From IMG/VR virus record IMGVR_UViG_3300032307_000452, positions 1-53,266 of that record: a DNA stretch of 53,266 bases. One strand, 5' to 3'. The stretch's first letter is position 1; every line of letters begins with the position of its first letter. Shown in pieces: positions 2,328 through 44,755 of the stretch. The notes below the pieces were generated by a model, which saw only the letters and a program-made list of their open reading frames with translations, ran no database searches and was not told the origin of the DNA. Source of the stretch: a virus (lineage: Duplodnaviria > Caudoviricetes). Position numbers and translations under genes: made by a program.

Positions 2328-2366
2328 ATAAAAGTTAGAGAAAACGATAAATTTCTAAAAAAATAT

Positions 2367-3686: not shown

Positions 3687-3689
3687 ATA

Positions 3690-17644: not shown

Positions 17645-18023
17645 CGTCTAAAAGTTTTGTAGTACTAAACCCTTCTATTTTATTGAAAAATTTTATTTCT
17701 TTTGCATGGTTACCACCAATAATAGGTTTATACATATATTCATCTCCAATTACAAATATATCAGGCTTGTAAGTTTCTAAATGTTTTCTTAAAGATTCAT
17801 CACTATCAAATACTACAATTTTATCAACATCCTTTATTTGCAGTAAATTAAATACTCTTTGTCCTTCGGTGTGAAAAGGTCTACCTTCACCTTTCATTTG
17901 TTTAATTCGTTCATCTGAATCAATACCTATCATTAAATCTCCTAAAGATTTTGCATAATCTATTAATTTAAAATGCCCATAGTGTAGAACATCAAAACAA
18001 CCATTTATCCAAACCTTTTTCAT
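17637..18023 (-). CDS. rfaE2: HldE/RfaE domain II-like heptose-1-phosphate nucleotidyltransferase
   Basis: NGCFDVLHYGH, GIDSDERIKQMKGEGRP, GFSTT. Overlaps the kinase gene. Confidence 0.85.
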   Translation of the reverse strand: MKKVWINGCFDVLHYGHFKLIDYAKSLGDLMIGIDSDERIKQMKGEGRPFHTEGQRVFNLLQIKDVDKIVVFDSDESLRKHLETYKPDIFVIGDEYMYKPIIGGNHAKEIKFFNKIEGFSTTKLLDDE

Positions 18024-19171
18024 TATAAGAATTTTTCTAATTCTTTGATTACCATTTCAGATGTAATACTTTTAGTACACTCAAATTGCCTTTCAGTACC
18101 TTTATGGTCAGGACACCAATTCCAATCACCAGGATCCAATCTAAGTCTATTAAAGCAACCTTCACATTTTCCTTTTGGTGCAGCGATTCTTATACAATCT
18201 TGCATTTCAGCCCAATCGTATGAGAATCCACTAATCAATACAGTTGGAACATTTAATCCCCAACTTAACCAACTCAATCCACTACCAATACCAATAAATG
18301 CTTTTGATTTTAGCATTTCATCCATAACTAATTCCAATGGTCCATTTGGATGTTTTATAATACCTGTTGGTAATTTATTACCCATATAGTTATCACCCTC
18401 TTTAGATAATAATTTTACTGTATATCCTCTATTGTTTAACCAATCAACAACATCTTGCCACCCATTTGGATTATTCCAAAATTTAGATTGTGCAGTACCA
18501 TGAATTCCAATACATACTTGTTTATAATTTGGGTCTATAAATGGTGCTCTTTCTTTTAGTTTAGGTTTTATTTCTTTATACTCCAATCCTAAAATATCGG
18601 AACACATTTTTTGCATAGTTTGTGTTTTCGGGTCTATTGGATTTTTATAAATGTTAATTGTATTATCTTCATTATAAAATAAACCTATTGCATACATTGC
18701 ATATAAGTTTTCTACATTTGTGCCAGGAGATACAAATTCTATATCTGGATATCTACTTTCAAACATAGAATTCATAAAAGTAGAAACAACCATTTTACAA
18801 TTATGAACTTTTCCAAATTCTTCAACGTATGGTATCCATGCTAAACTATCTCCCAATGCTTTTGAATCTAATGCAACATAAACTCTTTTATTTTCAGGAT
18901 TATATAAATGTTCAAACCAAAGTTTTCCGTTTTCATATATTTCAATCTTCCATTCTATAAAATATTCTAAACTACATTTAGTCCACATATTATTACATAT
19001 AGAAGTGTTATATAGAATTCTTCCGTTTTTATTATTTATAAATTTAACAACATATTCTGCTTGTCTATTTCCTTTAATTTCAACAAAAGCACCTCTTACA
19101 AAATGAAAATAAACTTTATTATCAATTTCAAATTTATTATTTATATTTTTAATTAAATTATCGTAAATCAT
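18023..19171 (-). CDS. Aah/TibC-family (BAHT) protein O-heptosyltransferase
   Basis: N-terminal beta domain FHFVRGAFVEI, catalytic ALGDSLAW, VCIGIHGTAQSKFWNNPNGW, FIGIGSGLSWLSW, VLISGFS, and iron-finger CEGC-x13-C-x11-C (WCPDHKGTERQFECTKSIT). ATG at 19171 overlaps the upstream TAA (TAATG). Confidence 0.9.
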   Translation of the reverse strand: MIYDNLIKNINNKFEIDNKVYFHFVRGAFVEIKGNRQAEYVVKFINNKNGRILYNTSICNNMWTKCSLEYFIEWKIEIYENGKLWFEHLYNPENKRVYVALDSKALGDSLAWIPYVEEFGKVHNCKMVVSTFMNSMFESRYPDIEFVSPGTNVENLYAMYAIGLFYNEDNTINIYKNPIDPKTQTMQKMCSDILGLEYKEIKPKLKERAPFIDPNYKQVCIGIHGTAQSKFWNNPNGWQDVVDWLNNRGYTVKLLSKEGDNYMGNKLPTGIIKHPNGPLELVMDEMLKSKAFIGIGSGLSWLSWGLNVPTVLISGFSYDWAEMQDCIRIAAPKGKCEGCFNRLRLDPGDWNWCPDHKGTERQFECTKSITSEMVIKELEKFL

Positions 19172-21342
19172 TAATTCCAAGTTTTAACTGTTAAATCCAA
19201 TAGTGAGTATCCTTCTGCCTGTTTACTATACATTTTATTTGTAGTATATCGTTTCATAGGATGGTGATAGAATACATGATTAAACCAAAGGTCACCAACA
19301 TCCCAACCACAATCGTTCAATCGGTCCATCCACCATCCTTTAGTTCGGTTTGGTATTAGATAACAATGTGCAAGGTCTTGATTGTGTGCAGTTTGTGAAA
19401 ATAACTCATCAACTTTTATTTTTTCTCTTGATGGGTTATCTGCTAATGAAATAAAATACACATCATCTCTTTCTGATATGAAACATGCTTTGTGTACTAT
19501 ATTAACAAACTCCTCTAAACCAGTGTAAATAAATGCATCAGCTTCGAATATTAAAGTGTAATCATAATTTTCTTCATCTATGGTTTCTAATGCATTTCTA
19601 TGTGCCAAATAACATCCATAATGTCTACCAGTCATCCAACCCAAACCAGCACCAGGGTATAATTCACCTGGTTTATTATCTTTACTAATATGTTCAGGTC
19701 TTCTACAATTTTCAGCAGGTGCTAATCCTTCATAAACCTCATTTACAATTGGTTGATAATCTATTCCGTATTTTGATAATTGTTGTAATGATTGTATAGA
19801 AACCCTTTCCCTCATATCATCAGGTCTAGTCAGCATGTGTTTTACTTGTATTCTTGGTTTTTTTCTTACAAATGAACGAAACCCTTGCTGAAATTGTCCA
19901 TAAAAATATTCGTTTGCTGCTCTCGTAACTCCTTCAAATACACCATAATCATCACCACTAATAATACCACCCGGCTTTACTTTATTATACCAAACTTGCA
20001 AGTCTTCCATTAAGGCATCGTATGAATGCCCAGCATCAATCATAATAAAATCAATACTACTATTTGTAAAATTATTAGATGCGTTTTTGGATGTATCTTT
20101 TATTGTATTAAATTTATTATAGTTATCAGATAATACTGTGTTATCTACGAACTCATAAAATATATCACCATTAAAAGTATTAACTATATTTTGATGTAAT
20201 TGTTCATCATCAGTCCCTTTCCACGTATCAATAGATGTGAAATTAATATCCTTACCAGATTCTTTTATTTTTGTTGCTAAATGATTTGTAGATTTACCAA
20301 ACCATGCCCCAACTTCTACAAATGTTTCACCACCAACTGCCGAATCAACTACATTATTATATAATTCAGAATACGCAAACCAACCAGGTATTTCGTTAAA
20401 TTCAGGTTGTAACTTCTCTAAAATAATTCTTTTAGTTAATTTCAAATCATCATCTATATAAGTAACTAATTCATTATTATCGTATGTATCTAAATAAGTG
20501 TGTAATTTTCTGAATATAGATGGTAGTTTGTAACTCAATGCTTCTTTAACTGATAATGGATTTAATTCTAACTTAGAACTAAAATAAAACATATCACTTG
20601 CTGCATAAAACGTATCTACATCATTTCGTTCACCCCATATAATACAATTATCAGGTTTGAATTCCATCAATGGTTTCCAATAGTTTTCAAAGTTCATAGC
20701 TTGGTTTCCCACAAAATGAAATTTAATTTTATATTTTTCCAATTGCCTAGCTATTTGAAATATTTCAGCTTGATTCTTACCAGGTGAAAATAATCCAACC
20801 ATCAATATATGTTTCCAATCGGATTCAAACCCTAATTCAGTTTTAGCCAATTGCTTATCAAATTCATATTCTTCTATTGGATATTCCCATATTTGAGTTT
20901 CAATTCCCAATGTATCAAATCTTTGCTTACTCCATTCGGATACTAATACATATCTATCAGGATGATATACTATTTCGGATGGATTTGTAAACGAACCATG
21001 TGTTGATGCTACTATAAAATAGTTTCTATCTTTTGAAAATAATTTTTCAACTATATCAATTGGTAAGTCAAATTCAGGTATTTCTTGAAAGTGAATAATA
21101 TTTGGTTGAAATGTTCTAATAACATCAAATATTGCACGTTTGTTATCACCTAAAGTATGAACAGGTACTAATGATTTAATTCTATTTTTTTGAACTACAT
21201 ACGCATCTCCACCACTATTATTTATTTCAACAACTTCTATTTCAAAATCGTTTATAAAGTGTTTTATTTGTTTGTATGTGTATTGTGGTTGTCCGCCCGT
21301 AGAAAGATGTGGACAGACATAAAGTAACTTTTTCTTTGCCAT
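19171..21342 (-). CDS. GT-B (GT4-like) glycosyltransferase / class I SAM methyltransferase / GT25-like fusion
   Basis: PHLSTGGQPQY...GKNQ...ELNPLSVKEAL (GT4-like); FVEVGAWFGKST...IDAGHSY...KPGGIISGDDY (Methyltransf_24-like); YGCYLAH...IFEADA...AHCYLI (GT25-like). ATG at 21342. Confidence 0.8.
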   Translation of the reverse strand: MAKKKLLYVCPHLSTGGQPQYTYKQIKHFINDFEIEVVEINNSGGDAYVVQKNRIKSLVPVHTLGDNKRAIFDVIRTFQPNIIHFQEIPEFDLPIDIVEKLFSKDRNYFIVASTHGSFTNPSEIVYHPDRYVLVSEWSKQRFDTLGIETQIWEYPIEEYEFDKQLAKTELGFESDWKHILMVGLFSPGKNQAEIFQIARQLEKYKIKFHFVGNQAMNFENYWKPLMEFKPDNCIIWGERNDVDTFYAASDMFYFSSKLELNPLSVKEALSYKLPSIFRKLHTYLDTYDNNELVTYIDDDLKLTKRIILEKLQPEFNEIPGWFAYSELYNNVVDSAVGGETFVEVGAWFGKSTNHLATKIKESGKDINFTSIDTWKGTDDEQLHQNIVNTFNGDIFYEFVDNTVLSDNYNKFNTIKDTSKNASNNFTNSSIDFIMIDAGHSYDALMEDLQVWYNKVKPGGIISGDDYGVFEGVTRAANEYFYGQFQQGFRSFVRKKPRIQVKHMLTRPDDMRERVSIQSLQQLSKYGIDYQPIVNEVYEGLAPAENCRRPEHISKDNKPGELYPGAGLGWMTGRHYGCYLAHRNALETIDEENYDYTLIFEADAFIYTGLEEFVNIVHKACFISERDDVYFISLADNPSREKIKVDELFSQTAHNQDLAHCYLIPNRTKGWWMDRLNDCGWDVGDLWFNHVFYHHPMKRYTTNKMYSKQAEGYSLLDLTVKTWN

Positions 21343-21349
21343 ATTGTAA

Positions 21350-21381
21350 CAAATATACGAATTTATTTTTGAATTACCAAA
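21350..21381 (-). promoter_or_regulatory. Bacteroidota sigma70-type promoter for the glycosylation cassette
   Basis: TTTG-N20-TATATTTG (-33/-7 consensus TTTG / TAnnTTTG). Confidence 0.75.
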
Positions 21382-21382
21382 T

Positions 21383-21640
21383 TTATTTTTGATAAACCAC
21401 TGTACCCTCAACCAAATCAATTTCTCCGTTTGGATATTTTTGATTTAAATCCGCTAATATTGAATTTAATTCTTTATTTGCAGTAGAGTATTCAGATTCA
21501 ACAACTGCTATAATTTTTTTTATTTCAGCTATATCTAAATTCAATTGCCCAGCATTTACAATTAATTCGTTTTTGCGATTATTAAGTTCTTTTATTTTAG
21601 ATAAAACGCTTTCTTCTAATTTTTCGGTTTGTAATTCCAT
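21383..21640 (-). CDS. Small coiled-coil protein (paralog of 16470..16859), possible fibre-associated chaperone
   Basis: Contains LNQKYPNGEIDLVEGTVVYQK. ATG at 21640. Follows the tail fibre gene. Confidence 0.75.
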   Translation of the reverse strand: MELQTEKLEESVLSKIKELNNRKNELIVNAGQLNLDIAEIKKIIAVVESEYSTANKELNSILADLNQKYPNGEIDLVEGTVVYQK

Positions 21641-21664
21641 AATTTTATTATTTATTGTTTGTAT

Positions 21665-21672
21665 ATAAATAT
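21665..21672 (-). promoter_or_regulatory. Putative late promoter core ATATTTAT
   Basis: Recurrent intergenic octamer. Confidence 0.55.
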
Positions 21673-21680
21673 ATAAAAAT

Positions 21681-24600
21681 TTATAAAGAACCACTTATTT
21701 GTGCTTCTAATTGGTTTACTTTTTGAGATAATTCTTGCACAGCTTTCCACAATACAAATACTAATTCGGTTTTAGCAATACCAGATGTCATCCATTGTTT
21801 AGGTCCTTCTGGATTCTCTGGGTCTTCGAACCAATCATAATCTACGAATTCTTCAAATCCACCTGCTTCTAATTCTTCCGCAATTATACCTATTTGTTGA
21901 GGTCTTACTTCCGCATCCTTATCTACTTTCCAATAATAAGTTCGTATTGGTACATTATTTATACAATCTAATACAGATGGATGTTCCCAATTTTCAATTT
22001 CTTCCTTATATCTTCTTGCTGAAGTATTTCTACCCACCCTCCAAGTAGATAATGATATTTCCATACCTCTAATAGTACCACCACCAGGACCACTAACATT
22101 TGTTAATATAACAGCCGGTCTAAGTCCACCATCATTATAGGTTGTTATGTAACCAGGGCTACCAGTTGCAGTATTCCAAGAAAATTGACCCGTACCCATC
22201 TCAATATTATTACCATTGGTTACAAGCTTACCTGCTCCACTTGCAATATCAATAGCAGTACCTCCAGATGTTCCTGTTAATTGTATTGTGGTATTTGCTG
22301 TATCACCTTCTAGTGTAATAAATCCTTTTCCATTTAAAATTGGTATAGATGCAGAGTCCTCTCTCCTTAATCTAATAAATCTATTTTGTGATGTTGCTAT
22401 CTGAATACCTTTATTTGTTAATTCAACAACGTTTACGTTTGTAGCTGCTACAATTGCCGGAGTTGGTATGTATGCGTTTACAGCGAAAGAATATCCAGAC
22501 CCTAAGCTATATTGATATCCCTGAATTTTTACAAATAATTTAAAAACATAATCAGTAGCTGATGGATTTGGTGCACTAAATTGGAAGCTTCCTACATATC
22601 CATAAAAATTTGCATAACTTTCATCGAACCCACCATTCCAATAATCTGCAGCTACTGTAACCTCTTGTAGTATAGTTGTGGAAGTAGAATCATAAATTCG
22701 GTAACCCCAATAAATGTTTGCATATCCTTCTGCATTAAATGCTTGTATAACAGAATAAACGGATGGCCAAGAAACAGAAGAATCGGTATATGTACCAGCC
22801 GATACGTTGATTGTTTGACCTGAACTTTCCCATACTTCATCCAACGCATTTGGTAGAGATGGAGATGAATCATACGCAGATACAGCATCACTACTAAGGT
22901 TTATACCCGTTCCAGCCAAATCCGTTAATTCACCGAAGTTTACTTTAAGACGAGTTTCTCCACTTTCTCTAATTGCTATACCAGGAAGTGATGGGTCAAG
23001 GAAAATTCTACTACTAGCATCTCTAAGAATATTATTTTCAACAGTCCAACTACCAATAGAACCACCAGTTGCGTTAATTTGTCCAGATATAGTTGCATTA
23101 GAAACAACTAAACCACTAGCACCCAATGAAAAGTTAGGTCCTATTAAACTACCAGTTCCGTTTGCATCAGCTGTCAGAGAAATAGCAACAGCCGGACTTG
23201 TTCCAACCGTTACCGTATCGGTAAATGTACCAGTTGCTGCGGATATATTTCCTGCAAATGAACCATTAGCACCACTTATATCTCCCTTAAAGAATGCATT
23301 ACCAGATGTGTCTATGTAGAAATTTTTAGAGTGTATAGAACCTACTGCAGCTAATGTAATACCAGCTCCAGCATTAAAGCCTGAAGTATTTTTTGTACCA
23401 CTATAAATTGCATCACCTGCCAATTCCCAACCCCCAACAGTTCCATCATTGTGGTCATCTCCATTATCAAATGCACCAATCTTACCACCATCTCTAGCAG
23501 TTGCTACGTTTTTAATTCGTATGTTACCAGCAATTTCTAAAGCAGAACCATCCCACTTAAGATATCTATCACCTCCAGTATTTACAATAGAAAATCTACC
23601 AGTTGTACCACTTGCACCAGCTTCATATATTCCTAAGAAAATACCAGGTCTTTCATACCCAATAACAGCTCCACCAGGATTCAATGTTGTACCAGATGTA
23701 CCAGATGTTCCTACCGTTGCACTTTGTCCGATTGCAATATATGGGTCAGGTCTACCACCAGAAATTACAATGTTTGCAAATGCCCCAGTTCCATCTTTTG
23801 TACCAACATTAATTGTATTTTTAACATAAGACTCTTCAAATATTGCAATTTTAGCTGCTACGAAGAATTCTTGGTCACCTAAATATTCCCACCAATCATT
23901 AGTACCATCAACAGTTGGAGCATGGTAGTTTACTAACACACCATTTTGGTCATAAGTTGCAGGACCTGAACCACTAATTGCTGCATAATATTTTACAGTA
24001 TCTTGTGTTGCTAAATAAGTAACCGCATCTCTACGATTATTAGTAGTTTCAACTTGCCCTATATAATTAATAGTAGGGCTCCATTCACCTCTCATCACAA
24101 TACCAGGTCCAACTGCTCCTTCAAATTGAACTGATAAAGATTGTGTTTTAAAGAAAGTTTGTCTACCTTCACAATTTATCGCATATACTATTTCAGCTGT
24201 TGTGTTTGTTTCAGGATCATCCCATGCGGTAATACCAGGCATTGATGCAGGTGAGCCGGTTAATTTACTTCCTACAATTATATTATCATTATCTAAATGT
24301 ACATAATTTGGTTTTGATGTTACCTCTACTTGATATTGATATTCATAAGATGAACTACCATACGCATCTATTTGTACACCAGTAAATCCAGAAGGTTTAT
24401 TTGTTAATTCATAAGTACCTCTATATGCTCTTATTATATTTGAAGTAGTTCCCAATTCAACTTCACCAGACACTCTATATACAACAGATGAATTTTCATT
24501 TTGCATCTTAACATCATAAGGAGCAGGTTCGGTAAATTGAACTGCAAATGATTGTGTTATAAATTGAGTTTGTCTACTTGGAGGTCTACTAATAAAATCC

Positions 24601-27600
24601 GTTGCTACTTGATTTGAATAACCTTCGAAATCAATTTTATACACAATCTCACCTGTTTTATTAATAGCTGGTTTCTCCCAACCACTAATATCAGCCATAC
24701 CAGCAGGAGTTGTTGTTACTCTATTAGTTGGTAATGAAATCCAAGGTGATTTATAAAAAATAGATGCAGATGAATATCCTAAAATACCAATTAAGTTTTG
24801 TAAATAATCATAATCCGTATCTTGTGGTGCTGGATAATTTCCTGTTGTTACATTTATTAAAGATGTTGTACCTTTATATGTTGGTAATTTAATAGATGTT
24901 CCAGACAAATCAGTATCAAACAATTCTGCTTTAATCGATGTATTTTCATTTGTTGCTGCTATTTTATATGCATCAGCTCCAGCTTTAATACCGGCAATCG
25001 TTAATTGTCCTTCTGCTCTATATGGATTTAAAATAGAAGATGTATATGGATTACCATCGGTTATTTTTACTTTCCAAGTTTTATTTTCTTCAGGACCAGC
25101 AGCATCGGTACCTGGTATAAAGAATACTTTTTCAGTTATACCAGCTCCTTCAAAATAAGGTCCATCGTATAATGTTTCAGAACCATCAGTATCAACAAAA
25201 AATAAACTAAACCATGCAGAACCTGTTGTGTTAAATGCAGTTGCTTTTAATTCAACATCTCCTTCAGGTGAAACTCTATACCCATCCCTATCATAATTTA
25301 TTGTATATGGATTAGCTTTTAATTCTACAGTTCTAGCATTAGGTACTGATACATTCTTTGTAAACGTTTGAGTACGTGTATAGATAGATGATGTATATTC
25401 ATGCCCACTTCCTAATGCAAATGGATAAACTTGAATTGTATATACTGCACTTGCTGATACATACGGATAATCAAATCTATTGTAATTTATAGTTGCCGTA
25501 CTTAATGAAGATGACGAAAGTGAACCAGTTCTTATATTCCAAATAGAACCACCTCTAGTTTCAATTGAATTAATTCTCCAAGTACCAGGTGCTATCGATT
25601 GGGTTGTAAATCTTAAAAAATCTTCCCCTTCTTTTACTTGTATTGTTGTATTAGTTGGTGCATATCCCACAGGTGTTACAAATCCAACCTCATCCGCAGT
25701 TAATGTTGCATTTTGAGGTGTTATTAATATTTGAATTGGTGGAGGTCCTTCTAATACTTTAGTATAGTTTACAATTACACTTGCTGTATAAATCGAAGAT
25801 GTGTAATATGGATGAATAATTAATGGATACTCAATACTTCCACTCAAATCTGTCATATTTGATGAAGCACTTACGATTAATGATGCTGTGTATGGCGTTC
25901 CAAAGGATGATGTAAAATGTACATTACCTGCTTTAACTCTATTTTCTATTATTGAAGATGTTGCTATATAGAATGTACCATGTGTATCTAAATTATCCAA
26001 AACACCAGCACTAGAACTAAATGCTAAATACCTTGAACCCTGCTTTAATTTAATATCAGTTATAGATGGTACATAATCATTAACAATACCTCTTGAATTT
26101 GCACCTAAAGTTACAGCTATTGGATTTACTTCAAATACGATACTTTCATCACCTTGCTTACCTTCAGGAACAATTGTAAATGTTTTATCAATAGTAACCG
26201 ATGCCGATGTCCAAGGTTCAGTATATGTAAATGCTAATGTTAAAGTTTTAGTTTGATTTAAAGCACTTCGTACATTACCACTTATTACTTGTGATGGTAT
26301 TATATTTTTATTTTCATCAGTTGCAGAAACAGTTATGGTTGGATGTAAACTTTGTGTGTGATAATACATCCAATATTCAGGAACCCAATCTTTGTTGATT
26401 GACATTGATGGATATACCTGAAATGATGCTGTTACGGATTCGATTTCAGATGCCGCCGTTCCTCTTTTTGCAAAAGATGCCGTAGCAAATGCAAATGATG
26501 GTCTAAATGTTTTTTCTGTTCTTGGATTAATTGTGAATGAATCTACATTATATGTTATAATACCACTATCCAATCCATCCTGCAAATCTTCTAATATAAT
26601 AGATGCTACAACAGAGCCTGATGTTAAGTATGCAGGTCCACTTGCTGCAGATTGTGATGAAATCAAATATATTGTTCTTCTAAAATCAATCGAATCTCTA
26701 TTAAAAGTTGCGTTATAATTTATTTCCCCACTACCCAACGAACCAGTACTTAATCCATATATGTATCTACTTGATGATGCGTATTCTAAGTTTACAAACT
26801 TCTCAGCTCCATCTGCTGAGCGTGATATGATATGTAGTTGCTTATCAGGCCAACCCTTTTCAGGTTTTGTTGTACTACTTAATTCGATATCGTTTACACC
26901 ATCTATGCGAACTGCTTGTAATTCTAATGAAGCAGTACTACTATTTCTAATTTGAGTTCCTCTATAAGGTCTAATCAAATAGTTTACACCACCAAACCCA
27001 TCCAATACTCTACTGAATATTATTGTATCTGTAAAGCCTTCAACTTCACCAGTAATTTTAATTAATTGTACAGTCTTATCAGTTCTTGAACCTGTAAAGT
27101 TACCAACTGTCATTGTTGGTGCATCGGATGTAATATCACTAAGTAAGCCCGGATATCTTTGACCTGTAAATGATGCAGTATAATCAGAGCCAGATAATTC
27201 ATTTCCATCAAAATCAAAAGATTGAGATGTATATGTTACAGAACCAGTTAATAAATTTTTTGTTACTGTAAATCCTACCACAGTTGGTGGAACAGGTTGA
27301 GAACCAGAATCAAATTGAAATTGTAAAGAACGAGGAGTAAATACCAATCCTTTTTGTATTCTTTGTATATTACCTCCATTAAATGTTTTACTTTCTTCAA
27401 CTAAAACCGGAATGTAATTATTATTTATATCATAAAATTCAAATCTATAATCAAAAGTTTCTTCTGGTAAAGTTCTTGGAACAGTCTGAATAAATGTAAT
27501 TTCATCAGGTGAATATGCTGTTTCTTGTGAAGCTCTTAAACTAACATCCGATATATACCAATCGTTACCTTTAACTTCAAAATATAATTTTGTATTGTTA

Positions 27601-29024
27601 GATTCTTCAGCTTTGAAATTTGCAGTTATTTGATTTTTTTGTAATAAAGAATTATCAGATGTTACAGTTACAATATTTTTTTCTACTTGAACAATTGTAG
27701 GAGAACCATTAACACTACTGTTTTTAGAACCACTTAAAAATGCTCTTATATAATTATTTGGATTTACAGCACTAGTTCCAATACGTGTATTAAACGTAAG
27801 TGTATATTCTATATTTTTAGTAACACCTAAAGAAGCTGTTGTGTGGAAGTAATTAGAATCAATACTATCTAATTTTACTGAATTATATAAATAATTTTGA
27901 TTAAATGCAGTTGTAATATTATTTGATGCAGTAATCCAATAATTTTTAAAATTACTTGTATCAAAAATACCATAAAATTCTTCATTTTTTACTTGAGATT
28001 CCAAATCCCTAAGTATTTCATTTGATTCAAGTCTTATTTCTTGAATAAATTGATAATCTGCTAAATCCGATTGTGATTTTCTAAATATTTTTACCCTAGA
28101 AACATCTCCAACAAATGTAGTTAAATCGGAAAGTACAATTTTAGCAAATGAACCAGTCAATGCTGTTTTTAAATTGTTTACACCTTCTATATAATTAAAT
28201 GAGGCAGTATATCCTTCATCTAAAAAGTTTGCAACAATTGATGAACCAAGTGATGATGCTTCGGTATATGGATTTCTAACTAATACCTGTTTATTGTTTA
28301 TTACACTATCAACTACTGCATTATATCCTAATGCTGGTACATTAATACTATTACCAACTATTGAACCAGTCCAATTTGTTGAATCTTCAATTTCTAATAA
28401 ATACGTTGTTGGTGCATTGTAATCATTTATGGATTCTCCAAGCCTTGGTGCTTGTGCTTGACCACTTAATGAACCTGTTTGTACAACAATAGTTGTTACA
28501 TTATTAAAAATAGGTTTTACTATTTCGGTTATGGTAACTTCAGGTCTTCTGTAAAATCTTACTTTATCTTCATTTGATAATAATCTGTTTACTTTAAATT
28601 CCTTTTCCCATTTAACGTTGTAAACGTTTTTCCATTCTTCTGGTATTGGTAGTACTACACCACCTTCATCAATATAGGTTTTTAATTCACCTAATACCGT
28701 TATTTTAGCAGTACCAATTGGAGTATCTTCATAAACATAAACAGCAACTAATTTTGATGTACCTTCATAATATTCAGGAACACCATTACCTGGCTCATAA
28801 TAAATTGGATTGCCATTAACATCTAATATTTGAATCTTTATTTCAGTAGATTCCATAAGATGCTCCGAACCTTCAATCAAAAACCCATTTTTACCACCAG
28901 TGAATGTATCTTTAAATTCAGTTATTTTAAAATATGTTGAATTTGGATTAGTATCCACCAAAAATGTGCCAAACGATGTAAGTGGTTGGGTAAGATTTTC
29001 TGCGAATTTTTTTATTATTGCCAT
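21681..29024 (-). CDS. Giant tail fibre/spike with C-terminal peptidase S74 intramolecular chaperone
   Basis: 2447 aa, beta-rich and S/T/G-rich. Fibre-type segments (ISGQINATGGSIGSW). C-terminal TSARRYKEEI...IGIIAEEL...LWKAVQELSQKVNQLE. Confidence 0.85.
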   Translation of the reverse strand: MAIIKKFAENLTQPLTSFGTFLVDTNPNSTYFKITEFKDTFTGGKNGFLIEGSEHLMESTEIKIQILDVNGNPIYYEPGNGVPEYYEGTSKLVAVYVYEDTPIGTAKITVLGELKTYIDEGGVVLPIPEEWKNVYNVKWEKEFKVNRLLSNEDKVRFYRRPEVTITEIVKPIFNNVTTIVVQTGSLSGQAQAPRLGESINDYNAPTTYLLEIEDSTNWTGSIVGNSINVPALGYNAVVDSVINNKQVLVRNPYTEASSLGSSIVANFLDEGYTASFNYIEGVNNLKTALTGSFAKIVLSDLTTFVGDVSRVKIFRKSQSDLADYQFIQEIRLESNEILRDLESQVKNEEFYGIFDTSNFKNYWITASNNITTAFNQNYLYNSVKLDSIDSNYFHTTASLGVTKNIEYTLTFNTRIGTSAVNPNNYIRAFLSGSKNSSVNGSPTIVQVEKNIVTVTSDNSLLQKNQITANFKAEESNNTKLYFEVKGNDWYISDVSLRASQETAYSPDEITFIQTVPRTLPEETFDYRFEFYDINNNYIPVLVEESKTFNGGNIQRIQKGLVFTPRSLQFQFDSGSQPVPPTVVGFTVTKNLLTGSVTYTSQSFDFDGNELSGSDYTASFTGQRYPGLLSDITSDAPTMTVGNFTGSRTDKTVQLIKITGEVEGFTDTIIFSRVLDGFGGVNYLIRPYRGTQIRNSSTASLELQAVRIDGVNDIELSSTTKPEKGWPDKQLHIISRSADGAEKFVNLEYASSSRYIYGLSTGSLGSGEINYNATFNRDSIDFRRTIYLISSQSAASGPAYLTSGSVVASIILEDLQDGLDSGIITYNVDSFTINPRTEKTFRPSFAFATASFAKRGTAASEIESVTASFQVYPSMSINKDWVPEYWMYYHTQSLHPTITVSATDENKNIIPSQVISGNVRSALNQTKTLTLAFTYTEPWTSASVTIDKTFTIVPEGKQGDESIVFEVNPIAVTLGANSRGIVNDYVPSITDIKLKQGSRYLAFSSSAGVLDNLDTHGTFYIATSSIIENRVKAGNVHFTSSFGTPYTASLIVSASSNMTDLSGSIEYPLIIHPYYTSSIYTASVIVNYTKVLEGPPPIQILITPQNATLTADEVGFVTPVGYAPTNTTIQVKEGEDFLRFTTQSIAPGTWRINSIETRGGSIWNIRTGSLSSSSLSTATINYNRFDYPYVSASAVYTIQVYPFALGSGHEYTSSIYTRTQTFTKNVSVPNARTVELKANPYTINYDRDGYRVSPEGDVELKATAFNTTGSAWFSLFFVDTDGSETLYDGPYFEGAGITEKVFFIPGTDAAGPEENKTWKVKITDGNPYTSSILNPYRAEGQLTIAGIKAGADAYKIAATNENTSIKAELFDTDLSGTSIKLPTYKGTTSLINVTTGNYPAPQDTDYDYLQNLIGILGYSSASIFYKSPWISLPTNRVTTTPAGMADISGWEKPAINKTGEIVYKIDFEGYSNQVATDFISRPPSRQTQFITQSFAVQFTEPAPYDVKMQNENSSVVYRVSGEVELGTTSNIIRAYRGTYELTNKPSGFTGVQIDAYGSSSYEYQYQVEVTSKPNYVHLDNDNIIVGSKLTGSPASMPGITAWDDPETNTTAEIVYAINCEGRQTFFKTQSLSVQFEGAVGPGIVMRGEWSPTINYIGQVETTNNRRDAVTYLATQDTVKYYAAISGSGPATYDQNGVLVNYHAPTVDGTNDWWEYLGDQEFFVAAKIAIFEESYVKNTINVGTKDGTGAFANIVISGGRPDPYIAIGQSATVGTSGTSGTTLNPGGAVIGYERPGIFLGIYEAGASGTTGRFSIVNTGGDRYLKWDGSALEIAGNIRIKNVATARDGGKIGAFDNGDDHNDGTVGGWELAGDAIYSGTKNTSGFNAGAGITLAAVGSIHSKNFYIDTSGNAFFKGDISGANGSFAGNISAATGTFTDTVTVGTSPAVAISLTADANGTGSLIGPNFSLGASGLVVSNATISGQINATGGSIGSWTVENNILRDASSRIFLDPSLPGIAIRESGETRLKVNFGELTDLAGTGINLSSDAVSAYDSSPSLPNALDEVWESSGQTINVSAGTYTDSSVSWPSVYSVIQAFNAEGYANIYWGYRIYDSTSTTILQEVTVAADYWNGGFDESYANFYGYVGSFQFSAPNPSATDYVFKLFVKIQGYQYSLGSGYSFAVNAYIPTPAIVAATNVNVVELTNKGIQIATSQNRFIRLRREDSASIPILNGKGFITLEGDTANTTIQLTGTSGGTAIDIASGAGKLVTNGNNIEMGTGQFSWNTATGSPGYITTYNDGGLRPAVILTNVSGPGGGTIRGMEISLSTWRVGRNTSARRYKEEIENWEHPSVLDCINNVPIRTYYWKVDKDAEVRPQQIGIIAEELEAGGFEEFVDYDWFEDPENPEGPKQWMTSGIAKTELVFVLWKAVQELSQKVNQLEAQISGSL

Positions 29025-29116: not shown

Positions 29117-29290
29117 ATGAAGAAATATGCAATGATACAAATTGATGCGGATGTGCATCAGATGTTAAAAGAATTTTGTAAAGATAAAGGATATAAAATA
29201 AGCGGATTAATTGAAACGCTTATAAAAGAAAAGGTGGAGTCCTCAAAGAAGACCCCACCCAAAAATATACTACCAGTTGTTAAAAATTAA
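29117..29290 (+). CDS. Ribbon-helix-helix (CopG/Arc-like) DNA-binding protein, 57 aa
   Basis: Below the ORF-track cutoff. Hand translation MKKYAMIQIDADVHQMLKEFCKDKGYKISGLIETLIKEKVESSKKTPPKNILPVVKN fits a strand-helix-G-x-x-x-S-helix pattern. Confidence 0.75.
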   Translation: MKKYAMIQIDADVHQMLKEFCKDKGYKISGLIETLIKEKVESSKKTPPKNILPVVKN

Positions 29291-32200
29291 TCTTAGAGAA
29301 ACCATCTACTTTCTTAATTTCAATAAGACCATCCACAATATCTCTCATTTGTTCTAAGTGAGAAATTACCCAAATAAAATCAAATTGAGTTTTAAGATAT
29401 TGCATCATCATAAATAAAGATGATAGGTTATCTGCATCCAATGTACCAAATCCTTCATCGATTACTAAGAAGTTTGGTCTAGGTAGGTTACAAATGTTAA
29501 TTAGAGCCACTCTAATCGCTAATCCACTAATGAACTTCTCCATACCACTACACATCTCTAAAGCCCATTCCTGGTCTTCGTAAACGATTCTAGCGTTAAT
29601 GTTCTTTCCATCAGTATCCATTGAGATTGAGAAATCAACTACCTGTCCCAATATGTTGTTCACTTCATTTTCAATTGCTGGAAGTGCTTTAGATATTAAT
29701 TCGTAAGGTACTCCATCTTTCTTAACTGCATCTAAGTAGAATGTATATAATTGATTTTTAGTTTCCAATTCCTTTACTTCTTCCATCTTAGCCTTCATAT
29801 TGTCAATGTAGGTTTTTGTTGCACCTACATCTGACATTAATTTCAACATAAGTTTGTTTACATCTGATATTTGGGTTTCCACACCTTGCTTTAATCTACG
29901 AACATTTTGAATTTGGATATCTAATGCCTGATTTTTAGTGATTGTTTCTTCGTTATCATTGTATCTTTGAATATCAGCGTTTACACTATCTCTTTGAGTT
30001 TGTAATAATTCAATTTTAGAATCTGCTGTTCTGATGTCTCCTTCTAATCTTTCTCTAACTACAATCAATCTCTTATGTTCATCATTCCACTCTTTCCATT
30101 GAAGGAATTGTTCTTCAATACCTTCCCAAGAATCTAAAGTTTGTTGGATACCCACACATTGAATAGTTGCATTTTCAACAAACCTTTTTAGTTCAGGTAA
30201 TGCTTCTTTTGCTCTCATTGCATCTTTAACAAACTCATTATCACAACAAAATTTACAATTTGGGTCATATTCATGTTTATCCAAATGGTTAATTTTTTCT
30301 TCAGCAGAAGTCAATTGAGATTTTAATGTTGAATACACTTTCTCTGCTTCAATTAAACTCTTTTGCTCTCTCTGATAATTAGAATATGCAACATCTATAC
30401 CTATATCGTTTATAGTAGCTTTAGAATCAATCGTTTCCTTAGCCTTTCTAACCAATTCAGTTGCTTCGGTAAGTTTTTGTGTTTTAACAACCTTAGAATC
30501 TTCCCAAGTACTTAATTCACTATCAATCTTTGTTAGTTTACGATTTAATTCATCAATATCTAAATTACCTTGAATTGGAACTATTTGTTGAGATAATCCT
30601 ACTATTTGTTCTTCCAAATCACTCTTACGATTTTCTAATTCCGTTTTTTCAGAATCCAATTCACCATACTCAATCTTCTTCTCATTCAAGTCGGTTTCTT
30701 TTTGGGCTAATTCTGTCGTAAAATCAGTACGCTTGAAATTTCTGATAAGAGCGTTCACATCTTTTATGTCATTCGTTGCCGTTTCATACAACTTATCAAA
30801 CATATCCAATCCCATAAATTGAGCAAGGAGGTCTTTCCTTTCCGATTGTGATTTATCAATGAATAAGGCATTGTTTCCTTGCAAACTTAAAGCTGTCATT
30901 ACGAAATCCTCATAACGGCCAACGTATTGTTCGATGATTTGATTTGTATCCCTTCTTTCCGTTCCATTTAGTGATTCCCTTCCACTATCACCATCTCTCC
31001 AAAAGTCCACATCCACTTTTACGTTTCTTCCCTTATTAATAGTTCTACCTTCTCTACGGATGTGATACAACACACCATCAATAGTGAAATCTAATTGGCA
31101 ATGGAAATCCTGCTTCCTATTATTCATAATTGCAGCTGCTTTGTATGCTCTACTACATTTATCAAATAAACAAAATGAGATTGCATCAAATAGACTGGAT
31201 TTACCTTGTGCGTTTGGTGCGAATAATCCCATCAGTCCGTTTACCTTATCAAACTTAATGATATTATCTTCACCATAGCTGAACATATTAGAGAAGTCAA
31301 ACTTTACAGGCTTCCAGCTAATATTTCTTTGTAGTTCCGATGGTTGTACTCTACTATTAATGTCACGATTGATTTTCTCTATCCCAGCTAAGTCCTCCTT
31401 TGTAACGAATGGTAGCATACGTTCAATATACTCCCCTATTAAAGAGTTTTGATGGTTTATATCACCCACACTATCTACTTCCAGCCTTGCTTCTCTATCG
31501 TTGGTTTTTTTGGTATTGAATGTATCCGTTCTAATAATTGTAAAATCATCTACACCATATTTTGCCGTAATATCAGCCATCATCCTCTTAGTATCTGCGG
31601 TATCCGTATTCTTTACCCTCACTCTCAAACGAGGGTATAACGGCATATCAGTTACATCGGGTACAATACCACCATCAACATCTAAAGTGTAATATCCATA
31701 ATCGTTTTTGATATCAACTTCTTCGTAAGTCATTGTATCCAAATCCCAAACTAAGAATCCGTGCTTATCAAGGGTTTCACCAAAGTTTTGTTGTACTAAA
31801 GAACCAGCATATACCACCTTACATCCGCTTGACGATATCATCTCTTGTCTTTTATGGATATCTCCCAATAGAGCTAAATCGTATCCATCAAATATATCAG
31901 TTGTAAAGTGTCTACTACTAACTACATACCCTACATCGGTTGTAGAGTTATCAACAGGTCCGTGAAATAGTGCAATCTTTTTGTTTCCAAATAAAGTATT
32001 TGCTTTAGGCCAATTATCTTTGTTATCAAATATACTGAATACTGCAAAATCAACATCTCCAATTGCATAAACCTGTGTATCTCTTAGGTATGTTAAGTTT
32101 GGTAGTTTTAATGCCTCTACAATTGGAGTAAGTACATCCAATCTATCGGCATTATTCATATTACAATCGTGATTACCAGCAATCATAATAGTTTCACAAT

Positions 32201-32426
32201 GGTTTGTACATTCTGTCAACAGCCAACTAATCTCTTTCACCAATTCAGGACTCATTTCCAACTTAGCATGTGCAATATCACCTGCTAAATAAATAATTGA
32301 ATCTTCCGTTCCTCTTTTCTTAATTTCATCAAACATAGCATAGAATACTTCTCTAAACTCTTTATGTCTTTTGATGTTACGGATGTGTATATCCGCAATG
32401 TGATAAATCCTTTTTAATTTACTCAT
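29280..32426 (-). CDS. Fused Mre11/SbcD nuclease - Rad50/SbcC ATPase (gp47-gp46 fusion)
   Basis: Phosphoesterase motifs ADIH, AGD, GNHD, FHG, GDIH. Walker A APNAQGKSS, coiled coil with CKFC zinc hook, signature CSGME, Walker B LVIDEG, ISH. Confidence 0.93.
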   Translation of the reverse strand: MSKLKRIYHIADIHIRNIKRHKEFREVFYAMFDEIKKRGTEDSIIYLAGDIAHAKLEMSPELVKEISWLLTECTNHCETIMIAGNHDCNMNNADRLDVLTPIVEALKLPNLTYLRDTQVYAIGDVDFAVFSIFDNKDNWPKANTLFGNKKIALFHGPVDNSTTDVGYVVSSRHFTTDIFDGYDLALLGDIHKRQEMISSSGCKVVYAGSLVQQNFGETLDKHGFLVWDLDTMTYEEVDIKNDYGYYTLDVDGGIVPDVTDMPLYPRLRVRVKNTDTADTKRMMADITAKYGVDDFTIIRTDTFNTKKTNDREARLEVDSVGDINHQNSLIGEYIERMLPFVTKEDLAGIEKINRDINSRVQPSELQRNISWKPVKFDFSNMFSYGEDNIIKFDKVNGLMGLFAPNAQGKSSLFDAISFCLFDKCSRAYKAAAIMNNRKQDFHCQLDFTIDGVLYHIRREGRTINKGRNVKVDVDFWRDGDSGRESLNGTERRDTNQIIEQYVGRYEDFVMTALSLQGNNALFIDKSQSERKDLLAQFMGLDMFDKLYETATNDIKDVNALIRNFKRTDFTTELAQKETDLNEKKIEYGELDSEKTELENRKSDLEEQIVGLSQQIVPIQGNLDIDELNRKLTKIDSELSTWEDSKVVKTQKLTEATELVRKAKETIDSKATINDIGIDVAYSNYQREQKSLIEAEKVYSTLKSQLTSAEEKINHLDKHEYDPNCKFCCDNEFVKDAMRAKEALPELKRFVENATIQCVGIQQTLDSWEGIEEQFLQWKEWNDEHKRLIVVRERLEGDIRTADSKIELLQTQRDSVNADIQRYNDNEETITKNQALDIQIQNVRRLKQGVETQISDVNKLMLKLMSDVGATKTYIDNMKAKMEEVKELETKNQLYTFYLDAVKKDGVPYELISKALPAIENEVNNILGQVVDFSISMDTDGKNINARIVYEDQEWALEMCSGMEKFISGLAIRVALINICNLPRPNFLVIDEGFGTLDADNLSSLFMMMQYLKTQFDFIWVISHLEQMRDIVDGLIEIKKVDGFSKINF

Positions 32427-42406: not shown

Positions 42407-42412
42407 TACTTA

Positions 42413-42420
42413 ATAAATAT
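42413..42420 (-). promoter_or_regulatory. Putative late promoter core ATATTTAT
   Basis: Fills a 15-bp gap, 6 nt upstream of the ATG. Confidence 0.5.
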
Positions 42421-42421
42421 T

Positions 42422-43711: not shown

Positions 43712-43725
43712 AATTTATTTTTTTA

Positions 43726-44754: not shown

Positions 44755-44755
44755 A

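Follow-up and report, generated by a model that had tools for sequence, protein, structure and literature searches.

A serine motif enriched in the peripheral tail proteins of distant T4-like phages, with and without a neighbouring BAHT heptosyltransferase gene

We analysed a 53,266-nucleotide stretch of phage DNA (the whole of it is called the window here), and found that the tripeptide [ST][GASQ]S is enriched in its 2447-aa tail fibre or spike protein; this enrichment is confirmed as real. The initial annotation had read the tripeptide as the acceptor sequon of the neighbouring heptosyltransferase (BAHT). The enrichment, its restriction to peripheral proteins and the true BAHT next door all hold up, and the tripeptide as a BAHT sequon does not, as relatives free of BAHT are enriched too. 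Since the motif is common to members with and without BAHT, it does not depend on BAHT, and the tripeptide is probably not the private target site of the neighbouring enzyme. The account we prefer, with about even confidence, is a real, selected, lineage-wide motif of tail proteins that is independent of BAHT and most simply would be a surface-strand feature. The motif reads hydrophobic-[S/T]-[G/A/S/Q]-S-hydrophobic and is under selection in the fibre, spikes, outer baseplate and, weakly, the sheath and capsid. The group that carries it consists of distant T4-like phages, namely the window's clade, Microcystis phage Mel-JY01, Flavobacterium phage immuto, the uncultured phage LR756508 and Rhodothermus phage RM378 (immuto, Mel-JY01 and RM378 are the cultured members).

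The serine motif in the fibre and other tail proteins

The fibre gene has the following features:

21681..29024, minus strand: tail fibre or spike gene, 2447 aa, 49 sites (shuffle counts; C-terminal Peptidase_S74)
23925..29024, minus strand: motif-dense part, fibre residues 1-1700, holding 45 of the 49 sites (site positions)
21849..22022, minus strand: predicted intramolecular chaperone domain, fibre residues 2335-2392 (PF13884 Peptidase_S74, E 4.2e-07, 30.6 bits, cut-off 22)
23688..23711, minus strand: GTSGTSGT run, fibre residues 1772-1779 (sequence; period-9 tandem repeat at 23688-23708)

All motif counts below are given as observed vs expected. The fibre contains 49 sites vs 13.3 +/- 3.4 in 1000 whole-protein shuffles (z 10.6; 0/1000 shuffles reach 49), and shuffling within 40-residue blocks gives nearly the same expectation (13.6; again 0/1000 reach 49). 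The earlier hand count of about 45 sites, with an expectation of about a third of that, was thus close (the expectation is 27% of the observed count), and the enrichment over shuffled controls that it called for is present. Its other remarks on the fibre were also borne out: 45 of the 49 sites lie at residues 183-1684, within the N-terminal ~1700 aa (the remaining four are at 1957, 2224, 2287 and 2444), the flanks are usually hydrophobic, and the short GTSGTSGT run is there. A hydrophobic residue directly follows 33 of the 49 sites (4.3 expected) and directly precedes 25 (4.2 expected), and 15 sites have one on both sides (1.3 expected).

The third position must be Ser. The Thr variant [ST][GASQ]T is flat in the fibre (16 vs 13.8, against 49 vs 13.1-13.3 for the Ser form), and with both hydrophobic flanks it is not seen at all (0 vs 1.5). 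The motif is also directional, with T-x-S at 29 vs 7.0 and S-x-T at 10 vs 6.8; the reversed pattern S[GASQ][ST] is raised too (30 vs 13.3), partly since S-x-S counts both ways. At the middle position the enrichment is about 4.4-4.7x for each of G, A and Q and 2.3x for S; N, E, F, K and Y have zero occurrences. For a simple turn this would be an unusual choice of middle residues, G/A/S/Q being used and N and D missing or scarce. The pattern N[^P][ST] shows no excess in the fibre (36 vs 31.4).

Internal duplication was ruled out as a cause of the enrichment, as self-BLASTP of the fibre (E<=10) finds no internal repeats; Tandem Repeats Finder reports only five short arrays. A DNA word or codon cause was ruled out as well: the 49 sites draw on 42 different 9-mers (Ser codon families are used 41/8 at the motif vs 116/50 elsewhere).

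The motif also recurs in the other tail proteins that the initial annotation listed, and all four are enriched over shuffles; the last line adds a capsid protein fragment that it had not listed:

34292..35149, minus strand: 285-aa tail-module protein (6 vs 0.9; 0/1000 block shuffles reach the observed count; orthologues in Mel-JY01, immuto and LR756508)
35234..36472, minus strand: 412-aa tail-module protein (6 vs 1.8; 5/1000 block shuffles)
37172..42406, minus strand: 1744-aa large protein, assigned to the baseplate periphery by synteny only (15 vs 5.7; 1/1000 block shuffles)
44756..45844, minus strand: 362-aa protein adjoining a gp6-like wedge gene (8 vs 0.9; 0/1000 block shuffles)
1..1053, minus strand: fragment of the major capsid protein, truncated at the window edge (mild enrichment, 6 vs 1.8; 47% identity to the Mel-JY01 capsid protein)

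Orthologues of the 412-aa protein show 10 vs 2.6 (Mel-JY01), 5 vs 1.9 (immuto) and 4 vs 1.4 (LR756508), and there is also one in RM378; those of the 1744-aa protein, which has no Pfam or PHROG family, show 18 vs 6.6, 10 vs 5.4 and 7 vs 3.0, in the same order, and those of the 362-aa protein 8 vs 1.5 (Mel-JY01) and 8 vs 1.6 (immuto). Mre11-Rad50 (29280..32426), credited earlier with about two motifs, has exactly that number (2 vs 1.2), and across the 19 complete ORFs between 1080 and 21694 there is a single site. The enrichment is confined to peripheral virion proteins. In a PHROG search the fibre received no name, and of 8 tail-module proteins tested 7 received none.

The sites are conserved. 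Across 30 fibre orthologues (46-96% identity; 17-30 sites each), the third-position Ser is kept at 0.90 (other Ser 0.61, all residues 0.70); Thr is found in 1.7% (vs 7.4%) of third-position Ser cells, and 182 of 285 replacements at the middle position remain A/S/G/Q. The 61 orthologues of the 362-aa protein have 5-10 sites each, with the third-position Ser at 0.80 vs 0.63 for other Ser. Of 89 site columns, 7 are common to the window, Mel-JY01 and immuto, and 73 are lineage-specific. The motif turns over with its density kept, and the middle residue drifts inside G/A/S/Q. Judged from these alignments, the motif is kept by selection.

Residues 560-1240 of the fibre were modelled with AlphaFold as all-beta (mean pLDDT 68.7, pTM 0.33), and Foldseek matches it best to strings of Ig-like/cadherin-like domains and to SbsB and Sap, which are S-layer proteins (E 7e-12, TM 0.1-0.25). 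The model suggests an Ig-like domain string, not a β-helix. The C-terminal part of the fibre has a weak homologue in Mel-JY01 and LR756508. In this moderate model 12 of 24 third-position Ser are in strands. The initial annotation expected exposed turns; in the model the sites have no preferred position relative to strands: motif Ser lie near a strand start in 7/24 cases and all residues in 180/577, and within -1..+3 of a strand end, at moderate confidence, in 3/24 and 179/577 cases, respectively. An impression by eye that the Ser sit at strand starts, in a strand-loop-strand placement, disagrees with these counts (other Ser: 9/36). The AlphaFold model of the 362-aa protein is too weak to build on (mean pLDDT 65.4, with 92 residues under 50).

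The BAHT gene and the sugar cassette

The heptosyltransferase that the initial annotation saw next to the fibre is a genuine family member. The genes concerned are listed in the order in which they follow the fibre gene:

19171..21420, minus strand: 749-aa fusion of GT1, TylF/Methyltransf_24 methyltransferase and a GT25-like segment (Pfam; PHROG glycosyltransferase match)
18023..19180, minus strand: BAHT, TibC/Aah-family protein O-heptosyltransferase, 385 aa (TIGR04414; TibC 4RAP)
17637..18023, minus strand: HldE domain II-like heptose-1-phosphate adenylyltransferase, 128 aa (95.6 bits with TIGR02199, whose cut-off is 181.5; PF01467 E 2.4e-19)
16904..17644, minus strand: HldE domain I-like heptose-7-phosphate kinase, 246 aa (91.4 bits with TIGR02198, whose cut-off is 345; PfkB E 1.8e-11)

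BAHT is two genes downstream of the fibre gene, and the fusion gene overlaps its start by 10 bases. It matches TIGR04414 with 277.3 bits (cut-off 200) over profile positions 9-373 of 374, and the TibC structure 4RAP with E 2.7e-52 over residues 24-377. The phage stretch lgdslaw aligns with TibC LGDLLGW, and Asp is present at the position of TibC Asp-110, which we take to be the catalytic base (this position differs, D versus A, between two deposited TibC sequences). In the HMMER alignment, all four Cys of the TibC iron finger (339, 342, 358 and 370, as described in PMC4358343) align with Cys of the phage protein. By homology the phage ORF is a TibC/Aah-type family member, for which a ring dodecamer and heptosyl transfer from ADP-heptose to Ser would be predicted.

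No autotransporter substrate gene is found in the window, where the neighbours of BAHT are the tail fibre gene and sugar genes. Of the ADP-heptose pathway (GmhA, HldE kinase, GmhB and HldE adenylyltransferase), only the kinase-like and adenylyltransferase-like genes are present, both below equivalog cut-offs, in a search that covered GmhA and the two HldE steps; GmhA is absent from 5/5 related records, including the complete Mel-JY01 genome, and the adenylyltransferase is present in 1/5.

BAHT was found in at least 134 IMG/VR contigs. It is present in 5/5 clade contigs that reach the terminase; the 8 of 13 clade contigs without BAHT are also without the terminase, so that the region is not spanned, and no BAHT-negative close relative was found among the 13. 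A fibre homologue occurs in 53 ORFs of 80 BAHT loci (orthologues pooled from these loci are not independent of one another). Throughout the clade, BAHT and the fibre gene remain together. In Mel-JY01, a GT1 domain and BAHT are fused in one 1226-aa protein (annotated only as 'methyltransferase FkbM'), and the structural protein encoded immediately upstream has 25 vs 8.2 motifs. The huge phages LR756501 and LR756504 have no motif-rich ORF within +/-20 kb of BAHT, which in genomes of 636-735 kb is uninformative. Our literature searches turned up no report of a BAHT in a phage or of virions that carry heptose.

Relatives and known glycosylation systems

The initial annotation proposed to see whether enrichment tracks BAHT in related phages. 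It does not: the motif is up in 2/2 BAHT-bearing lineages and in 3/3 BAHT-free relatives (immuto, LR756508 and RM378 by HMM search; for immuto neither tblastn nor HMM finds a BAHT). The immuto tail spike has 51 vs 19.4 sites, with the Thr variant at 8 vs 14.2, and two further immuto ORFs are enriched (135075..136196, 18 vs 3.4; 84179..85288, 8 vs 1.6). This Ser preference in a BAHT-free phage means that Ser specificity does not discriminate for a BAHT acceptor. Motif contexts in immuto are the same as in the window, and tandem TAS[YF] arrays are present. For peripheral tail proteins pooled, [ST][GASQ]S-hydrophobic is found at 122/17.4 (7.0x) in immuto, 54/9.0 (6.0x) in the window and 51/11.2 (4.6x) in BAHT-bearing Mel-JY01. 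Summed over four orthologous baseplate families, the counts are 35/9.3 (window), 47/13.0 (Mel-JY01), 30/11.4 (immuto) and 14/5.4 (LR756508), i.e. somewhat higher enrichment with BAHT (3.8x and 3.6x) than without (2.6x and 2.6x) at n=4. RM378 has 134/76.8 genome-wide (Thr variant 65/62.0).

The motif is not a general property of tails, as three of three unrelated myoviruses are without enrichment: T4 (virion modules 65/59.9; gp34 6/4.9, gp37 8/5.5), LIS04 (117/117.3) and Slicko01 (50/51.7), for which BAHT absence was established by HMM in T4 and by tblastn only in the other two. Motif avoidance in cytoplasmic proteins, which would mark a promiscuous cytoplasmic enzyme, is inconsistent (non-virion proteins: window 3/7.0, Mel-JY01 60/56.6, immuto 32/45.8, T4 19/15.5). 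Pooled TerL orthologues, a set of non-independent sequences, have 1/79.9, and a 2255-aa protein of Mel-JY01 has 1 vs 7.5.

Every motif-rich genome screened (the window, Mel-JY01, immuto and RM378) has several glycosyltransferases; BAHT-free relatives do carry other glycosyltransferases, so glycosylation in general is not refuted. The cassette proteins of the window have no immuto homologue (phmmer, E<=0.01). A candidate for a shared enzyme, a 1093-aa cytidylyltransferase-like protein, was rejected, matching an immuto NadR-like protein only at the nucleotide-binding motif.

The closest known systems are Aah/AIDA-I and TibC/TibA. The phage enzyme is a member of this family, TibC-like over 354 residues, and its gene likewise lies beside the gene of a very large surface protein; in the bacterial case the BAHT gene adjoins its substrate gene, according to PMC4358343. 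Among three plasmid loci compared, two have BAHT followed by AIDA-I, and a Pandoraea plasmid locus without an adjacent autotransporter was set aside. As in these systems, modification would be cytoplasmic, with ADP-heptose and Ser-specific as the motif is, TibC modifying Ser and not Thr (PMC4358343). The phage partner, by contrast, is a fibre modelled as Ig-like strings and not a beta-helical autotransporter passenger, and the phage motif also occurs without the enzyme. The site contexts differ as well. AIDA-I, an established BAHT substrate, is enriched in S[GA][GA] (37 vs 7.3; its enriched context being hydrophobic-S-G-G) and depleted in [ST][GASQ]S (2 vs 11.5), whereas the phage motif is [ST][GASQ]S-hydrophobic and the fibre has S[GA][GA] at 8 vs 5.8. 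Canonical AIDA-type sites were discarded as an option for the phage proteins, as S[GA][GA] shows no excess in any ORF of the window, Mel-JY01 or immuto. The mapped TibA sites are N-S-GG and T-S-AA. PMC3835316 describes Aah as lacking a consensus sequence and as modifying the residue with which a short loop connecting two strands begins.

The HMW1C/HMW1 pair is similar in that one glycosyltransferase acts in the cytoplasm on a large adhesin whose gene adjoins its own, at numerous sites that follow a true sequon (PMC3012730), and different in being N-linked at N-x-S/T with another enzyme family. The immuto TAS[YF] arrays superficially resemble serine-rich repeat adhesins, whereas phage sites are mostly single, hydrophobic-flanked and scattered in folded beta domains. 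Those Gram-positive adhesins form a surface fibre and have dense S-x-S-x arrays in long, low-complexity, probably disordered repeats and are O-glycosylated in the cytoplasm by GtfA/GtfB, which are GT-B enzymes. In mycobacteriophage virions, phage-encoded glycosyltransferases act on capsid and tail proteins; we know of no heptosyltransferase and no comparable tetrapeptide motif there. The likeness is that phage glycosyltransferases lie beside structural genes and are thought to decorate the virion (e.g. two putative glycosyltransferases suggest capsid glycosylation, as reported in the abstract of PMC11256854), and the difference lies in the enzyme families and the phage group.

Explanations for the motif

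In the preferred account, the motif would most simply be an intrinsic surface-strand feature of the lineage's beta-rich tail proteins: in a beta-strand, the two hydroxyls would be on one face and the hydrophobic-small-hydrophobic residues on the other. Some motif sites are conserved between BAHT-bearing and BAHT-free members. Separately, the cassette (BAHT, the GT1-methyltransferase-GT25-like fusion and the two HldE-like genes) probably O-glycosylates the adjacent fibre in the cytoplasm, to judge from bacteria, where a BAHT gene adjoins its substrate gene. The conserved motif serines are candidate acceptors, with BAHT neither having created the motif nor being specific to it, and virion glycosylation is plausible.

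Several observations count against a structural motif. Such a motif usually belongs to one fold and fixed positions; here it is spread over non-homologous proteins, most columns are lineage-specific and immuto has tandem arrays, traits that together rather resemble those of a site recognised by a factor acting in trans. The choice of middle residues is unusual too. Also, the two moderate AlphaFold models (pLDDT 65.4 and 68.7) show no consistent secondary-structure position for the motif.

A possible alternative, which we hold only tentatively, is that the motif generally marks where peripheral tail proteins throughout the group are O-modified (most likely O-glycosylated), either by interchangeable cassettes or by one shared enzyme. 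The cassettes would be BAHT and GT1 in the window and Mel-JY01, amino-sugar and GT genes in immuto, and a GT with a UDP-galactopyranose-mutase-like gene in RM378. The spread over non-homologous proteins and positions, with density kept while sites turn over, agrees with this, as do the strict need for Ser, the unusual middle-residue set, the immuto tandem arrays, the restriction to external virion parts (with the poor 2255-aa protein of Mel-JY01), the glycosyltransferase genes in each motif-rich genome screened and the three motif-free outgroups. However, with no homologue of the window cassette in immuto, enzymes unrelated to each other would need to recognise one and the same tetrapeptide; motif depletion in non-virion proteins is not consistent, and glycosyltransferases are common in large phages, which makes the co-occurrence weak. 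Slightly more doubtful is the specific version in which hydrophobic-[ST]-[GASQ]-S-hydrophobic would serve as a common code for O-glycosylation of the outer tail in aquatic and thermophilic T4-distant phages, where ancient acceptors would be conserved and enzymes swapped (TibC-type fused or coupled to GT1; other cassettes in immuto and RM378).

It is unlikely that the tripeptide is the BAHT acceptor sequon, with the third-position Ser heptosylated at dozens of sites and fibre and baseplate densely glycosylated. A genuine BAHT with its four Cys and Asp kept, two genes from the fibre and beside ADP-heptose genes, speaks for it, together with the bacterial adjacency of enzyme and substrate genes, the shared Ser specificity of TibC and motif, the strong conservation of motif Ser in the BAHT-bearing clade and the motif-rich gene directly upstream of the Mel-JY01 GT1-BAHT fusion. 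Against it, three relatives free of BAHT show the same Ser-specific bias, which in immuto is no weaker, the AIDA-I and mapped TibA contexts are different, the fibre model has Ig-like strings rather than a beta-helix and no fixed strand-loop position for the motif, and non-virion proteins of BAHT-bearing Mel-JY01 do not avoid the motif; the lack of motif-rich ORFs within 20 kb of BAHT in LR756501 and LR756504 says little at their genome size. That the enrichment is a functionless result of composition, low complexity, duplication inside the proteins or a DNA word is hardly credible. These proteins are indeed rich in S, T, G and A and S[GASQ][ST] is raised (partly by S-x-S double counting), but local-composition block shuffles leave the same excess, the Thr variant and mirror S-x-T are flat, internal repeats are missing, the encoding 9-mers are diverse and motif Ser are conserved above average.

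TibC/Aah-type protein heptosyltransferases have so far been described as partners of bacterial virulence autotransporters; here such an enzyme belongs to the fixed gene set of a common clade of metagenomic phages and is encoded beside the tail fibre. In five phage lineages the serine motif is a strong signature under selection, and three unrelated myoviruses lack it. If the shared O-glycosylation code were true, fibres and baseplates would carry lineage-specific glycans at dozens of sites per chain. As a modification site, the motif would provide a readable sequence code for glycan coats of phage tails, bearing on host recognition, protease resistance and immune recognition; if structural, it would be a building principle of tail proteins specific to this group.

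A serine tripeptide in the tail fibre and other proteins of the window

All long ORFs of the window lie on the minus strand, and the genome behind it is known as a 53,266-base contig only. Using Pfam and PHROGs, we recognised a T4-type portal, a prohead protease, a large terminase, baseplate wedge proteins like gp6 and gp25, and a homing endonuclease of the SegE type. Among named phages, portal similarity is highest to Microcystis phage Mel-JY01 (49.5%), the uncultured phage LR756508 (46.5%) and the Flavobacterium 'immuto' phages (45.3%), Rhodothermus phage RM378 being more distant (34.3%). Mel-JY01, immuto and RM378 are available in culture. The 1048-aa ORF at 29280-32426 encodes a Mre11-like phosphoesterase fused to a Rad50-like SMC ATPase (the homologous region of LR756508 is split into two ORFs of 243 and 861 aa), and the ORF at 2367-3692 shows an unusual combination of a DNA N6/N4 methylase with a C-terminal I-TevI-type/NUMOD1 DNA-binding segment (weak matches).

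The tail fibre (2447 aa; 21681..29024, minus strand) carries a C-terminal Peptidase_S74 chaperone domain. The initial annotation had reported an excess of the tripeptide [ST][GASQ]S in this protein, and shuffling upholds it: the fibre has 49 sites, as compared to 13.3 ± 3.4 expected (1000 shuffles), and with shuffling in 40-residue blocks (13.6 expected) a count of 49 was reached in 0 of 1000 trials. Residues 183-1684 hold 45 of the 49 sites. The four other ORFs named as sharing the motif are all enriched (observed vs expected: 6 vs 0.9, 6 vs 1.8, 15 vs 5.7 and 8 vs 0.9), the Mre11-Rad50 protein has only 2 sites (1.2 expected), in agreement with its described near-absence there, and between 1080 and 21694 the 19 complete ORFs have one site among them. 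Serine is required at position three, as the threonine form [ST][GASQ]T is found 16 times in the fibre (13.8 expected). The motif has a direction (T-x-S, 29 vs 7.0; S-x-T, 10 vs 6.8), its middle residue is enriched about 4.5-fold for each of G, A and Q and 2.3-fold for S, and a hydrophobic residue directly follows it at 33 fibre sites (4.3 expected). Hydrophobic residues on both flanks are found at 15 serine-form sites (1.3 expected) and at none of the threonine form (1.5 expected). The original observation is thus confirmed and strengthened, with a motif sharper than first described. Internal repeats were ruled out as the source of the excess by repeat searches, and so was a DNA word, since the 49 sites use 42 distinct 9-mers.

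Across 30 fibre segments from orthologues (46-96% identity), serine at position three of the motif is kept at a rate of 0.90; the rates for serines elsewhere and for residues in general are 0.61 and 0.70. Threonine occupies the third position in 1.7% of cells (vs 7.4%), of 285 replacements at the middle position 182 are again A, S, G or Q, and each of the 30 orthologues retains 17-30 motif sites. The 61-member family of a 362-aa protein behaves similarly (serine kept 0.80 vs 0.63). Summed over 53 fibre homologues, which share ancestry and therefore do not give independent counts, the motif followed by a hydrophobic residue is found 1077 times in the serine form (205.7 expected) and 274 times in the threonine form (212.7 expected). 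To judge from these alignments, the motif is under selection.

Residues 560-1240 of the fibre, modelled with AlphaFold from a 30-sequence alignment, come out as all-beta, with a mean pLDDT of 68.7; the model most resembles chains of cadherin-like or Ig-like domains, along with SbsB and Sap, two S-layer proteins (E-values down to 7e-12, TM 0.1-0.25), and is not a beta-helix. Among the 24 confident sites in this model, no strand position is favoured by the motif serine: 12 lie inside a strand (293 of 577 for all residues) and 7 near a strand start (180 of 577). The model of the 362-aa protein is weaker (mean pLDDT 65.4).

The heptosyltransferase and its sugar cassette

Downstream of the fibre, the genes are found in the following order (coordinates where assigned):

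21383-21694: ORF of 103 aa
second gene downstream of the fibre: 749-aa fusion of a GT1 glycosyltransferase, a TylF/Methyltransf_24 methyltransferase and a GT25-like segment
18023..19180, minus strand: 385-aa TibC/Aah-type O-heptosyltransferase (BAHT), TIGR04414 'autotransporter strand-loop-strand O-heptosyltransferase', 277 bits (cut-off 200)
after the BAHT gene: HldE-domain-II-like adenylyltransferase, below the equivalog cut-off
after the adenylyltransferase-like gene: HldE-domain-I-like kinase, below the equivalog cut-off

The heptosyltransferase noted next to the fibre is therefore genuine: in addition to its TIGR04414 score, it can be aligned to the solved structure of TibC (E-value 2.7e-52) and retains the four iron-finger cysteines, as well as an Asp matching TibC Asp-110. 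BAHT is a stable gene of the clade, being found at 68-90% identity in at least 134 IMG/VR contigs and in all five related contigs that extend to the terminase; the eight contigs without it have no terminase either. GT1 and BAHT are separate overlapping genes in the window, whereas in Mel-JY01 BAHT forms the C-terminal part (TIGR04414, 320.6 bits) of a 1226-aa protein with a GT1 domain, which links the two activities. The corresponding CDS (PP395634.1, 4750-8430), labelled 'methyltransferase FkbM', contains GT1 at about residues 123-302 and a complete C-terminal TibC-type heptosyltransferase. The ADP-heptose genes are accessory to the cassette: their homologues are found in 27-28 of 80 BAHT loci, the adenylyltransferase in one of five long related records, and GmhA in none of these five.

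Two small ORFs (16470-16859, 129 aa; and the 103-aa ORF) bracket the cassette, and look like paralogues flanking an inserted cassette because a single 104-aa Mel-JY01 protein (31641-31955) is matched by the two of them (E-values 3e-08 and 2e-06, respectively); of the 80 BAHT loci, 77 contain the 129-aa ORF. The 1093-aa protein at 13158-16439 begins with a cytidylyl/adenylyl-transferase-like domain, followed by about 900 residues without assigned function. A conserved counterpart is encoded next to the small and the large terminase gene in both Mel-JY01 and LR756508; the Mel-JY01 protein is 639 aa long and lacks roughly residues 197-677, and in LR756508 the gene comes straight after the fibre homologue, without an intervening sugar cassette. 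A BAHT gene is also found on a Pandoraea plasmid (NZ_CP011808.2, 96620-98077), with no autotransporter gene inside 9 kb and an FkbM-family methyltransferase about 5 kb upstream, recalling the methyltransferase link in the phage cassettes.

The motif in phages with and without BAHT

In BAHT-bearing Mel-JY01, the motif bias is found in the baseplate and fibre module, with flat threonine forms; the structural protein immediately upstream of the BAHT fusion has 25 sites (8.2 expected) and the sheath 11 (3.6 expected). A 2255-aa protein whose gene (40571-47338) lies downstream of that for the tail tube is depleted (1 vs 7.5), opposite to the outer tail proteins, and its 1348-aa neighbour has 3 sites (5.5 expected). 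An 805-aa plus-strand open frame (635-3052) of extreme S and T content ([ST][GASQ]T, 76 vs 27.5) lies a short way upstream of the BAHT fusion and the motif-rich structural protein; it overlaps the annotated minus-strand CDS 739-2298 and extends into CDS 2519-3052, and either strand may be the coding one.

The enrichment was expected to track BAHT across related phages, and it does not. Immuto lacks BAHT by tblastn and by whole-genome HMM search, and has no detectable homologue of any window cassette protein. Its tail spike has 51 serine forms (19.4 expected) and 8 threonine forms (14.2 expected), ORFs 135075..136196 and 84179..85288 have 18 (3.4 expected) and 8 (1.6 expected) sites, and the sites stand in identical contexts, with tandem TAS[YF] arrays in immuto. 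BAHT is likewise absent from RM378, where the genome-wide serine form is in excess (134/76.8, observed/expected; threonine form 65/62.0), focused on ORFs at 64-78 kb with the same contexts. The table lists these ratios for pooled proteins, including BAHT-free LR756508.

Observed/expected motif counts in tail proteins (peripheral tail proteins pooled, serine form plus hydrophobic residue; four orthologous baseplate families summed)
Window (BAHT): peripheral 54/9.0; baseplate 35/9.3
Mel-JY01 (BAHT): peripheral 51/11.2; baseplate 47/13.0
Immuto (no BAHT): peripheral 122/17.4; baseplate 30/11.4
LR756508 (no BAHT): baseplate 14/5.4

No excess was found in the T4 virion modules (65/59.9; gp34 6/4.9, gp37 8/5.5), Listeria phage LIS04 (117/117.3; its 3567-aa protein 22/29.0) or Alishewanella phage Slicko01 (50/51.7). 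The bias is therefore a trait of this phage group, neither general to tails nor bound to BAHT. In a three-way ortholog alignment, 7 of 89 site columns are common to the window, Mel-JY01 and immuto, 9 are common to two of them, and the remainder are lineage-specific. Avoidance of the motif in non-virion proteins is inconsistent (window 3/7.0, Mel-JY01 60/56.6, immuto 32/45.8, T4 19/15.5). The BAHT neighbourhoods of two huge phages contain no enriched ORFs, which says little given the size of these phages. In immuto, about ten genes at 49-60 kb form a cassette with several glycosyltransferases, two aminotransferases of the WecE type, an epimerase, a methyltransferase and a 'pilin glycosylation protein', suggesting that an amino-dideoxy sugar is made and transferred.

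Acceptor context and readings of the motif

On two plasmids, the AIDA-I gene directly follows a heptosyltransferase gene. The main serine context of these adhesins is S[GA][GA] (37 vs 7.3 in L094, 8134-11997; 37 vs 7.7 in L096, 7747-11778), with T[GA][GA] found 3 times in each (5.4 and 7.0 expected); one adhesin is depleted in [ST][GASQ]S (2 vs 11.5), and the count in the other is close to that expected (15 vs 10.1). The S[GA][GA] bias is consistent with the heptosylation sites mapped in TibA, Ser-313 and Ser-322 (PMC4358343), and in the passenger region is a simple sequence correlate of such sites, although for Aah a consensus sequence is reported to be absent (PMC3835316). The phage fibre differs in using the [ST][GASQ]S context, its S[GA][GA] count being at the expected level (8 vs 5.8), and S[GA][GA] enrichment was found in no ORF of the window, Mel-JY01 or immuto. 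In the literature searched, neither a phage BAHT nor Mel-JY01 nor the [ST][GASQ]S motif was found described.

We put at about even the chances that selection keeps the motif in peripheral tail proteins throughout the lineage, independently of BAHT. The chief rival, which we hold more tentatively, is a shared O-modification site read across the phage group by different or still unrecognised enzymes; a trans-acting reader would fit the spread of the motif over non-homologous proteins, the turnover of sites at constant density and the G/A/S/Q set at the middle position. That the tripeptide is the acceptor sequon of the neighbouring BAHT, as first proposed, is improbable and unsupported, because the motif is equally strong and Ser-specific in BAHT-free phages and is unlike the known acceptor context of the BAHT family. 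Alongside a BAHT-independent lineage feature, the BAHT-GT1 cassette, by analogy, probably glycosylates the adjacent fibre, and some motif serines are possibly among its targets.
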